A stretch of 64,000 bases of DNA from a virus. Under the pieces are notes generated by a model that saw only the letters and a list, made by a program, of their open reading frames with translations, made no database searches and was not told where the DNA came from. The stretch's first letter is position 1. Every line of letters starts with the position of its first letter. Positions 61,983-62,418 of this stretch are shown here, in pieces. A program made the position numbers and the translations under genes. The stretch lies in the IMG/VR virus record IMGVR_UViG_3300023174_004352, positions 4,888 to 68,887 of that record, one strand, 5' to 3'.

Positions 61983-62110
61983 CTTTATAGAGGCTCTCTG
62001 TGGCGCTTGAATCCTTGGTAGCCCATCTCTTCATGGCCGGTCCTTGCTTTGGTCGACATTGGCAAGTTTTTCGGTGTTCCACTGTAGCTACTCAGAAAGC
62101 ATTTATAAAG
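61983..62110 (-). ncRNA. Candidate structured ncRNA (~128 nt)
   Basis: Closing stems CUUUAUA/UAUAAAG and GCUUUCUG/CAGAGAGC; inner GUAGC/GCUAC, CUUGC/GCAAG, CCAU/AUGG. Confidence 0.6.
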
Positions 62111-62113
62111 TTA

Positions 62114-62220
62114 CTTTAGTAAAACAACCTAAGGTGTATTGAGTATGTGGGCTATGCCGATCACAGTGACTGGGATACCAAACCTGATCTTTTTACAGAT
62201 TCTAGGTTGTTTTAATAAAG
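62114..62220 (-). ncRNA. Candidate structured ncRNA (~107 nt)
   Basis: 17/18-bp closing inverted repeat CTTTA(G/T)TAAAACAACCTA. Confidence 0.55.
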
Positions 62221-62221
62221 T

Positions 62222-62418
62222 GTCTAGCCACTCCCACCACAGGAGCCCTAGACTGAGCTGTTACTCTGTCCACTAGCCTTTCCATCTAGACGGTGCTTAG
62301 GTCCGCCTTTGTGATTTCTCAAGTCGCTTTAAACAAGCCTTGCGGTAGATCCAATGCACCGTGCTCTTATGGATTTGGCAATTACCCTAACCAGTACGTC
62401 GGTCAGCCACGGGGTCTG
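62222..62418 (-). ncRNA. Candidate structured ncRNA (~200 nt)
   Basis: CGGUGC/GCACCG, CCGC/GCGG, UGA-GAAA-UCA and GUCUAG/CUAGAC stems; no ORF. Confidence 0.55.

Follow-up and report, generated by a model that had tools for sequence, protein, structure and literature searches.

The 440-nt spacer at positions 61979–62418 of a 64,000-nt stretch of phage DNA (the window, which is the final 64 kb of the 68,887-nt IMG/VR record IMGVR_UViG_3300023174_004352) probably encodes three independent, independently folding noncoding RNAs (ncRNAs) on its minus strand, of which the first, module A, would be a conserved gene of its phage clade and the other two, modules B and C, exchangeable cassettes, with all three released by tRNA punctuation. 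The spacer extends from the stop codon of a coiled-coil open reading frame (ORF) to a gene for tRNA-Met(CAU); the local genes all use the minus strand, so that the RNA reads as the reverse complement of the window letters. Module A is a pseudoknotted RNA of ~200 nt, conserved as a single-copy gene in a clade of freshwater phages with genomes of ~280–356 kb. Modules B and C represent two families of stem-closed RNA cassettes out of at least about 30, and 0 to 3 such cassettes are present in a row between A and the next tRNA. The structures of A, B, and C are conserved through compensatory changes, and the modules are always co-oriented with tRNA genes, with tRNA 3' ends abutting them on the upstream side and tRNA 5' ends on the downstream side.

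A preliminary description of this interval, made from the letters alone, had divided it into three units, the second closed by a long stem and the third a multiway junction closed by about 15 bp, with both smaller units beginning with CUUUA and ending with UAAAG. We obtained the same division, with lengths of 198–199 nt for A, 107 nt for B, and 128–132 nt for C. The closing stem of B spans 18 positions with one mismatch, that of C consists of two 8-bp helices around a small (3 × 3) internal loop, and the CUUUA and UAAAG termini are present in both. Covariation among homologs, the lack of which the same description had named among the outcomes that would speak against its reading, was found in relatives from IMG/VR, with compensatory changes in 18 of 28 predicted pairs in A (77 distinct rows), 10 of 25 in B (20 unique sequences), and 12 of 36 in C (19 sequences).

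Structure and conservation of module A

The coiled-coil protein retrieved 80 loci from IMG/VR. The first tRNA lies 6–9 nt from the stop codon of its gene in 25 of these loci and 125–894 nt from it in 54 (37 distinct), whereas the remaining locus, which has no downstream tRNA, gave no measurable distance. All long spacers follow the same plan, with a module A of ~200 nt followed by 0 to 3 stem-closed cassettes with unrelated interiors and then by a tRNA; A starts with CAGACCCCGG directly after the stop codon and ends with GCUAGACAC. At two loci (L065 and L066) only the last hairpin of A and a cassette are kept, and at a third (L035) an ORF is inserted behind the cassette. Given that the 37 sequences of A aligned with MAFFT were found through the coiled-coil protein, this alignment is unbiased for RNA structure; RNAalifold predicted from it the 28 pairs, 16 of which show compensatory changes.

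The best-conserved part of A is its 3' domain, UGGACAGAGUAACAGCUCAGUCUAGGGC...GCUAGACAC. A scan with an exact pattern that fixes 23 bases of this domain matched at least 119 stretches in IMG/VR and nothing in genomes representing 185,579 prokaryote species. A covariance model (R1) detected full-length A in the scanned loci, and its sole match in the window was at 62220–62418 with 154.8 bits. In the alignment of 77 distinct rows, 95.8% of cells are paired, compared with 30–39% when the partner is slid by one to three columns, and the 262 compensated cells were equaled in none of 500 shuffles. Helix 1 covaries at all three of its pairs in this alignment, and a total of eight helices are both conserved and covarying, in addition to a pseudoknot.

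Since shifting loop lengths break the column register of the MAFFT alignment at the pseudoknot, it was tested sequence by sequence. Throughout the family, bases downstream of a GARAA motif are paired with the loop of a GGU...ACC hairpin, and relatives carry at least 12 complementary versions of this pairing, such as UAGGAU/AUCCUA, ACGGU/ACCGU, CUAGG/CCUAG, and UAGUGC/GCAUUA. The complementarity score was 5.29 within the same sequence versus 4.08 ± 0.12 for re-paired sequences, with none of 2000 permutations as high, and was at least 5 in 37 of 46 unique pairs. Inspection by eye also revealed a small H-type pseudoknot at the 5' end of A, formed by CGU/ACG in the window and by CGG/CCG or CUG/CAG in other members. 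RNase P-like, 6S-like, and HDV-like readings of A, likewise examined by eye, were discarded, with the order of paired strands being different, the ends unpaired, and no model matching.

Module A is present once in each of five relatives with genomes of 282–356 kb, including all four that are at least 90% complete. The CheckV completeness of 19% for the 68,887-nt record implies a genome of ~350 kb, in the size range that these relatives reach. Among 96 distinct contexts, A is immediately preceded by a tRNA 3' end in 38, by the coiled-coil gene and its stop codon in 30, and by another feature in 28. In the tRNA contexts A begins 0–2 nt past the CCA end, and in 19 of them the abutting gene is tRNA-Thr(UGU), typically with ...CACCA followed directly by AAACCCG. 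The gene that follows the array in 99 distinct tails is most often tRNA-Gly(UCC) (36) or tRNA-Met(CAU) (33), and all 383 tRNA genes in the A loci are on the same strand as A.

Module B and permuted tmRNA genes

Module B, CUUUAUUAAAACAACCUA...UAGGUUGUUUUACUAAAG, contains within its closing stem a near-invariant core, GAAUCUGUAAAAAGAUCAGGUUUGGUAUCCCAG, and a small hairpin, GGC-AUA-GCC. No homolog of B was found in the first 80 coiled-coil loci, and three arrays carry B behind A, one of which (L158) repeats the order of the window, A-B-C-tRNA-Met. A 22-nt core pattern retrieved 30 stretches from IMG/VR, and an exact 20-nt core pattern was found in only two contigs, both from metagenome-assembled genomes, among representatives of 185,579 prokaryote species. 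The predicted pairs are formed in 96.6% of cells, compared with 35–43% when slid, and the covarying pairs comprise 8 of 12 in the closing stem and 2 of 3 in the AUA-loop hairpin (GGC/GCC, GAC/GUC, and AGC/GCU). The core of 33 nt is near-invariant, with 22 of its bases being forced by the retrieval pattern.

In 8 of 11 loci scanned, the B core was found to be the intervening segment of a permuted tmRNA gene (RF04321, 106–143 bits), with the CCA end of the acceptor piece on one side and the 5' end of the coding piece on the other; in the 30 retrieved loci B often follows a CCA end directly. Matches to RF01850, or to RF01849 in one locus, were also obtained, and the RF01850 and RF04321 matches were above gathering scores. 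Given that the core is the intervening segment in these genes, it must be removed from the precursor of the two-piece tmRNA. All 60 tRNA and tmRNA genes in the 30 B loci are on the strand of B. The B module of the window is located between A and C rather than inside a tmRNA gene, and ARAGORN finds no tmRNA in the record.

The permuted tmRNA genes in the related freshwater phages (L200–L229) are of the betaproteobacterial type, with RF01850 scores of 79–158 bits and spans such as 266–658 in L200, 271–645 in L212, and 170–557 in L223. Their type may hint at a host range among betaproteobacteria.

Module C

RNAalifold predicted 36 pairs in seven helices for module C. In this alignment 98.0% of cells pair, compared with 34–47% when slid, and none of 500 shuffles reached the observed number of compensated pairs. 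The covariation extends beyond the closing stem to the interior helices 3 to 7. A total of 31 unique members make up the family, namely the 19 aligned sequences, a sister cluster of 11, and the single sequence of L070.

The apical loop of helix P4 contains a 6-nt palindrome in 30 of the 31 members: GUCGAC in 26, UCUAGA in two, and CCGCGG and UCCGGA in one each. In the 31st member the sequence is GUUGAC, self-complementary if two G-U pairs are allowed, and the position of the palindrome is about constant across members, at cassette offsets of 54–60. Given that adjacent bases of one loop cannot pair together, a palindrome that changes only to other palindromes points to pairing between two copies, and thus to the formation by C of a symmetric kissing-loop homodimer.

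A T-loop-like hairpin adjoins the inner closing stem of C (Table 1). In the subfamily of the window, AUUCAAGCG is flanked by only two pairs, one of which (columns 103/113) shows a compensatory change from G-C to A-U in 3 of 19 sequences. The sister subfamily has the canonical T-arm sequence UUGGUUCGAUUCCAA, with stems that include UUCG/CGAA, CGGG/CCCG, CCG/CGG, and CAG/CUG (with L070), and, across the 12 sequences of the sister subfamily and L070, a UUCGANU loop is carried by five different stems. The 8-bp inner stem together with this hairpin resembles the acceptor-T stack of a tRNA.

Cassette exchange among related phages

The 104 distinct A arrays contain no cassette in 15 cases, one in 75, two in 11, and three in 3. 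By similarity, the 102 distinct cassettes form ~33 clusters. A few of the single-member clusters represent ORFs or faulty parsing, and the parse overlooked at least one second cassette. Module C belongs to the second-largest cluster (the 19 members to which the sister cluster and L070 are added) and B to a cluster of three. The largest cluster, with 23 members of ~93 nt (L026 3451–3547, L040 1247–1337, L100, L145, and 19 others), is absent from the window; its members have an evidently covarying hairpin with an AUAG or AUAA loop and a conserved GUAAGGAC junction.

The preliminary description had treated the units as an array processed from a tRNA operon through shared closing stems. The common CUUUA/UAAAG stem base stands, and is carried by cassettes with otherwise unrelated interiors. 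A, B, and C are three different RNA families, with A also occurring alone, B inside permuted tmRNA genes, and C directly after A elsewhere. The shared base belongs to cassettes behind A and not to the B core, which has this base only where it sits behind A and is closed by different stems in other contexts. Presence and absence at the same site, together with shared stem ends, show that cassettes are exchanged, which would occur most simply by recombination between phages at conserved flanks.

A further stem-closed element of ~245 nt, designated E (GUUAUUGAUAGUAGU...AUUACUAUCAAUAUU), is located on the minus strand of the window at 57700–57946, immediately behind tRNA-Gly(GCC). Homologs of E are located between tRNAs in L009, L017, L030, L034, L043, and L044, and these seven sequences yield 68 predicted pairs, 28 of which are compensatory. 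Element E has no Rfam match at E ≤ 1.

Database and literature searches

The preliminary description had proposed that the modules are undescribed phage ncRNAs, and our searches agree with this proposal. With Rfam 15 (4227 models) only five tRNAs were found in the window at gathering scores, and a search of 61700–62600 at E ≤ 10 added only matches at chance level, such as mir-558 with 23 bits against a cut-off of 90 bits. In 14 relatives at E ≤ 0.05 the matches were GOLLD, tRNAs, and noise, with nothing on A or the cassettes, and across 34 related loci no Rfam family was assigned to A, B, C, or E. The named classes of self-cleaving ribozyme and RNase P RNA are represented in Rfam; hammerhead, twister, twister-sister, pistol, hatchet, and HDV-like ribozymes and RNase P RNA gave no match in 61700–62600 at E ≤ 10 or in the 14 relatives at E ≤ 0.05.

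A blastn search of the spacer against 50,697 GenBank phage records, T4-like phages included, gave no match, and with the flanks added only tRNAs were found among the matches listed (40 of 822 records). A scan of the record for CTTTA...TAAAG stems recovered the two cassettes and five other sites, compared with 0–8 in shuffled sequence, and is uninformative. In the literature on structured RNAs of phage tRNA arrays and tRNA islands, judged at the level of abstracts, no description of the modules was found. A total of 8,495 unnamed structured-RNA candidates have been predicted from intergenic regions of IMG/VR (PMC10690425). The module motifs were absent from the searched supplements of that study, and A, B, and C may already be among its candidates.

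Transcription unit and proposed release of the modules

The order on the minus strand is an 81-amino acid ORF, the 190-amino acid coiled-coil ORF, the spacer, tRNA-Met(CAU), tRNA-Pro(UGG), and a radical-SAM ORF (Table 1). Relatives of the coiled-coil ORF are encoded in 84 of 93 candidate IMG/VR stretches; a Pfam search with this ORF gave only a sub-threshold match to Seryl_tRNA_N (18.7 bits versus a cut-off of 28.2), and a PHROGs search gave none. Four promoter sites with a 12/12 match to the consensus are present on the minus strand between 57500 and 64000 (63523–63495, 58813–58785, 58138–58110, and 57691–57663), two of them directly before tRNA genes, and such a number in 6.5 kb suggests strong expression of the tRNA island by the host RNA polymerase. 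No terminator-like site was found on the minus strand in 61800–63500, with the modules themselves not being intrinsic terminators, and no predicted promoter or terminator divides the modules from the tRNAs, consistent with the location in a tRNA operon that had been proposed earlier. Given the promoter at 63523–63495 and the lack of a terminator before the tRNAs, A, B, and C should be cotranscribed with both ORFs and the tRNAs, and this promoter likely starts a transcript that includes the omega-like ORF, the coiled-coil ORF, A-B-C, and the two tRNAs.

Table 1 Features of the module locus and of the flanking tRNA island. Coordinates are those of the window.
Feature	Position	Strand	Remarks
Sigma-70-type promoter, perfect	63495–63523	-	TTGACA-17-TATAAT, 12/12; upstream of the 81-amino acid ORF
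RNA polymerase omega/Rpb6-like ORF, 81 amino acids	62972–63217	-	Pfam 2.1e-08
Coiled-coil ORF, 190 amino acids	62419–62991	-	Stop codon abuts module A
Module A	62220/62221–62418	-	Multihelix RNA with pseudoknots
Pseudoknot of module A	62309–62354	-	Loop UUGGAU (62349–62354) pairs with AUC-a-CAA (62309–62315), just past the GAGAAA motif
Module B	62114–62220	-	Stem-closed cassette
Module C	61981/61983–62110/62112	-	Multiway junction, 8+8-bp closing stem
Apical-loop palindrome of module C, GUCGAC, helix P4	62052–62057	-	Proposed kissing-loop dimerization site
T-loop-like hairpin of module C, GGAUUCAAGCGCC	62002–62014	-	Adjoins 3' strand of inner closing stem
tRNA-Met(CAU)	61903–61978	-	4 nt (UUAU) beyond the end of module C
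tRNA-Pro(UGG)	61822–61898	-	tRNA gene search and Rfam
DksA/TraR zinc-finger ORF	57375–57632	-	Pfam 4.7e-11; flanks the tRNA island together with the omega-like ORF

The modules have a tRNA 3' end or a stop codon on one side and the 5' end of a tRNA on the other, so that tRNA-maturing enzymes would also release them from the polycistronic precursor. RNase P cleavage at the 5' border of the tRNA that follows would free the 3' side of a module, whose other end would be freed as the upstream tRNA or mRNA is matured at its 3' end. The AU-rich closing stems may insulate each fold from its neighbors or may be sites for cleavage by a double-strand-specific (RNase III-type) enzyme. The released products would persist as stable RNAs, with C predicted to pair with a second copy of itself through the palindromic apical loop. 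Their role in trans would most likely concern translation or tRNA biology during infection, because the surroundings include tRNAs, tmRNA, GOLLD RNA, and nearby omega-like and DksA-like genes.

The tRNA-Met(CAU) had been described previously as an initiator tRNA. The Rfam alignment shows the C1×A72 mismatch of the initiator type, whereas the three consecutive G-C pairs typical of the anticodon stem of bacterial initiators were not found in the stem as read from the alignment. In relatives, another small omega-like ORF was seen by eye between tRNA-Met and tRNA-Pro. Elsewhere in the window, radical-SAM families match six ORFs (21787–22923, 24299–25720, 26595–27866, 31453–32523, 34759–36057, and 60630–61796), which is unusually many for a 64-kb stretch of phage DNA, and an S-adenosylmethionine decarboxylase-like ORF is present at 60277–60633.

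Strength of the structural evidence

Whole-spacer folding was not significant, with a z-score of -1.64 for the minus strand and -0.89 for the plus strand. For module B folding was significant (z-score of -3.63), with none of 200 shuffles folding as well. The pair tables of A, B, and C contain numerous G-U pairs on the minus strand, which on the opposite strand would read as A-C.

Several observations weigh against the proposal of three conserved, independently folding RNAs, or limit the evidence for it. The z-score of module C, at -2.05 with 8 of 200 shuffles as good, is marginal, and that of A, at -1.09 with 28 of 200, is not significant; single-sequence folding thus only partly exceeds chance, and the real support comes from the homologs. 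In the homolog alignments, the 77 rows of A were fitted to the structure of the model, which favors pairing, the conservation of 23 bases in A and 22 in B was forced by retrieval with exact patterns, and the shuffle tests leave the relatedness among sequences in place. Helices 2 and 3 of B are invariant and therefore provide no covariation signal. With regard to the palindrome of C, 56% of shuffles of the 65-nt core have a 6-nt palindrome somewhere, so that the argument rests on placement, and placement of the three rarer palindromes in the same loop was judged by eye. Finally, the 25 of 80 relatives that have no modules in their 6–9 nt of spacer show that the cassettes, and A at that position, are locally dispensable; the earlier argument that so dense a genome would not keep this much spacer is for the same reason weak when taken alone.

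Alternative explanations

The modules might act only in cis, as filler that aids the folding or excision of the tRNAs and is then degraded, with no function in trans. All modules lie exactly between RNA genes, the cassettes are optional and interchangeable, and the B core is a discarded segment in permuted tmRNA genes, as such a view would have it. Covariation, however, is not confined to the stems that would hold a spacer together: it is found in helices 3–7 of C, in the eight helices and pseudoknot of A, and in the AUA hairpin of B. The 33-nt core of B is conserved beyond its closing stem, A is single-copy in all five of the large genomes, and a covarying palindromic loop has no obvious role in a spacer. 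We therefore consider a purely cis-acting role unlikely, and favor stable RNA products.

An extension of the proposal that the modules are stable RNAs is about as doubtful. In this scheme A would be a constant scaffold and the cassettes payloads grafted onto it through the CUUUA/UAAAG stem, with C as a self-associating mimic of the tRNA elbow, and the products would form RNA-only assemblies or decoys directed at tRNA-directed machinery of the host. If it were true, the machinery engaged might be, for example, processing enzymes, ribosome rescue, or tRNA-cleaving antiphage defenses, and the rapid turnover of cassettes among relatives would reflect an arms race.

A different function would be assigned to A if it were a self-cleaving ribozyme or a mimic of an RNase P substrate that cuts at its own 5' border to free the upstream tRNA or mRNA. 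The position of A immediately after a tRNA CCA end (38 of 96 contexts) or a stop codon (30), as well as its pseudoknots and single copy, would suit such an activity. No known self-cleaving class or RNase P family was among the Rfam matches, no conserved signature of a catalytic core was recognized, and host enzymes suffice for cuts of this kind in ordinary tRNA arrays, so that we regard this reading of A as quite improbable.

Even less probable is that B and C represent MITE-like miniature mobile DNA, with the apparent stems being terminal inverted repeats of elements inserted at a hotspot. The inverted-repeat termini with the shared ends CTTTA...TAAAG, the same termini around unrelated interiors, and presence or absence at one site with up to three copies in tandem are all features that such elements would have. 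The orientation of the cassettes is nevertheless always that of the tRNAs (60 of 60 and 383 of 383 genes), no second copy is present in the window or in the 68.9-kb record, and no flanking direct duplication was seen in a check by eye. The G-U pairs are specific to one strand, the interior helices covary, and the same B core has different closing stems in other contexts.

The possibility that small proteins, one or several, are encoded in the spacer is negligible, given that, although ORFs of 20–68 codons exist on both strands, no frame is conserved, a stop-free frame runs through only 3 of 37 A and 2 of 19 C sequences, module lengths do not keep to multiples of three (14, 12, and 11 sequences of A in the three classes modulo 3), whole modules are swapped or absent in relatives, and the longest ORF of the region (61876–62082) runs through the tRNA gene.

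Stable ncRNAs freed from tRNA precursors thus remain the reading that we favor, and the tRNA islands of freshwater jumbo phages would then carry a repertoire of smaller, well-folded RNAs beyond GOLLD and ROOL. The locus would provide a natural system with which to study the packing and release of stable RNAs in tRNA precursors, and A, B, and C, at 107–200 nt, are compact RNAs suited to structural work. The modules are also a lead on roles of phage tRNA islands beyond codon supply.

Comparison with known systems

The species I and II RNAs of phage T4 have no known function, and that phage is not known to have a cassette arrangement. Both RNAs are described as products of the T4 tRNA precursor (PMC2330249), and they offer a parallel, as context only, for stable non-tRNA species arising within a phage tRNA cluster from the same precursor as the tRNAs.

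With the permuted tmRNA genes the relation is one of shared sequence, in that the B core is the intervening segment of such genes in other phages, whereas B in the window lies outside any tmRNA gene.

In the precursors of stable RNAs, 23S rRNA intervening sequences and the processing stems of rRNA operons form elements closed by long stems, which are removed through stem cleavage by RNase III. In B and C, the closing stems would act likewise, by analogy and not by homology.

The likeness of C to tRNAs and to the tRNA-like domain of tmRNA lies in its acceptor-like inner stem, on the 3' strand of which a T-arm-like hairpin with a UUCRANN loop would stack. The UAGCUACAGUGG stretch resembles a D arm, as judged against the tRNA consensus. 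Module C differs from a tRNA in having neither an anticodon arm nor an NCCA 3' end and in the continuation of its inner stem into the outer 8-bp helix, and neither ARAGORN nor the Rfam tRNA model (RF00005) calls a tRNA in 61981–62112.

Further parallels are GOLLD and ROOL, striking RNAs of tRNA islands whose function is unknown and which were recently shown to build RNA-only cages. Like these RNAs, the modules are encoded by phages, have elaborate covarying structures, are of unknown function, and are located in a tRNA island. They differ in size (107–200 nt versus 400–800 nt or more) and in their organization as one constant module with swappable cassettes, and oligomerization is predicted for C only. 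Of 20 relatives scanned, 6 have GOLLD at a distance of 1.5–2 kb on the upstream side of the coiled-coil gene. GOLLD matches (RF02032, 172–216 bits), often with an embedded tRNA, were located at 828–1290 in L003, 990–1452 in L035, 1496–1961 in L059, and 1155–1619 in L052, with further spans at 945–1412 in L026, 1543–2010 in L061, and 1396–1827 in L116. In L116 the next tRNA after A, identified by ARAGORN at ~1460–1531 with the anticodon UUA ("stop" suppressor type), falls within the GOLLD match. RF02032 has no match in the window or in the whole 68.9-kb record, which ends where GOLLD would be expected; the equivalent position lies beyond the end of the contig, so that the phage of the window may also carry GOLLD.

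The loop of C is comparable to the dimerization site of HIV-1, in that it is self-complementary and changes only to other self-complementary sequences. In GOLLD and OLE, the switching of one loop palindrome for another is described as a mark of symmetric intermolecular kissing loops, confirmed in those RNAs by cryo-electron microscopy (PMC12286853), and module C shows palindrome switching of the same kind.

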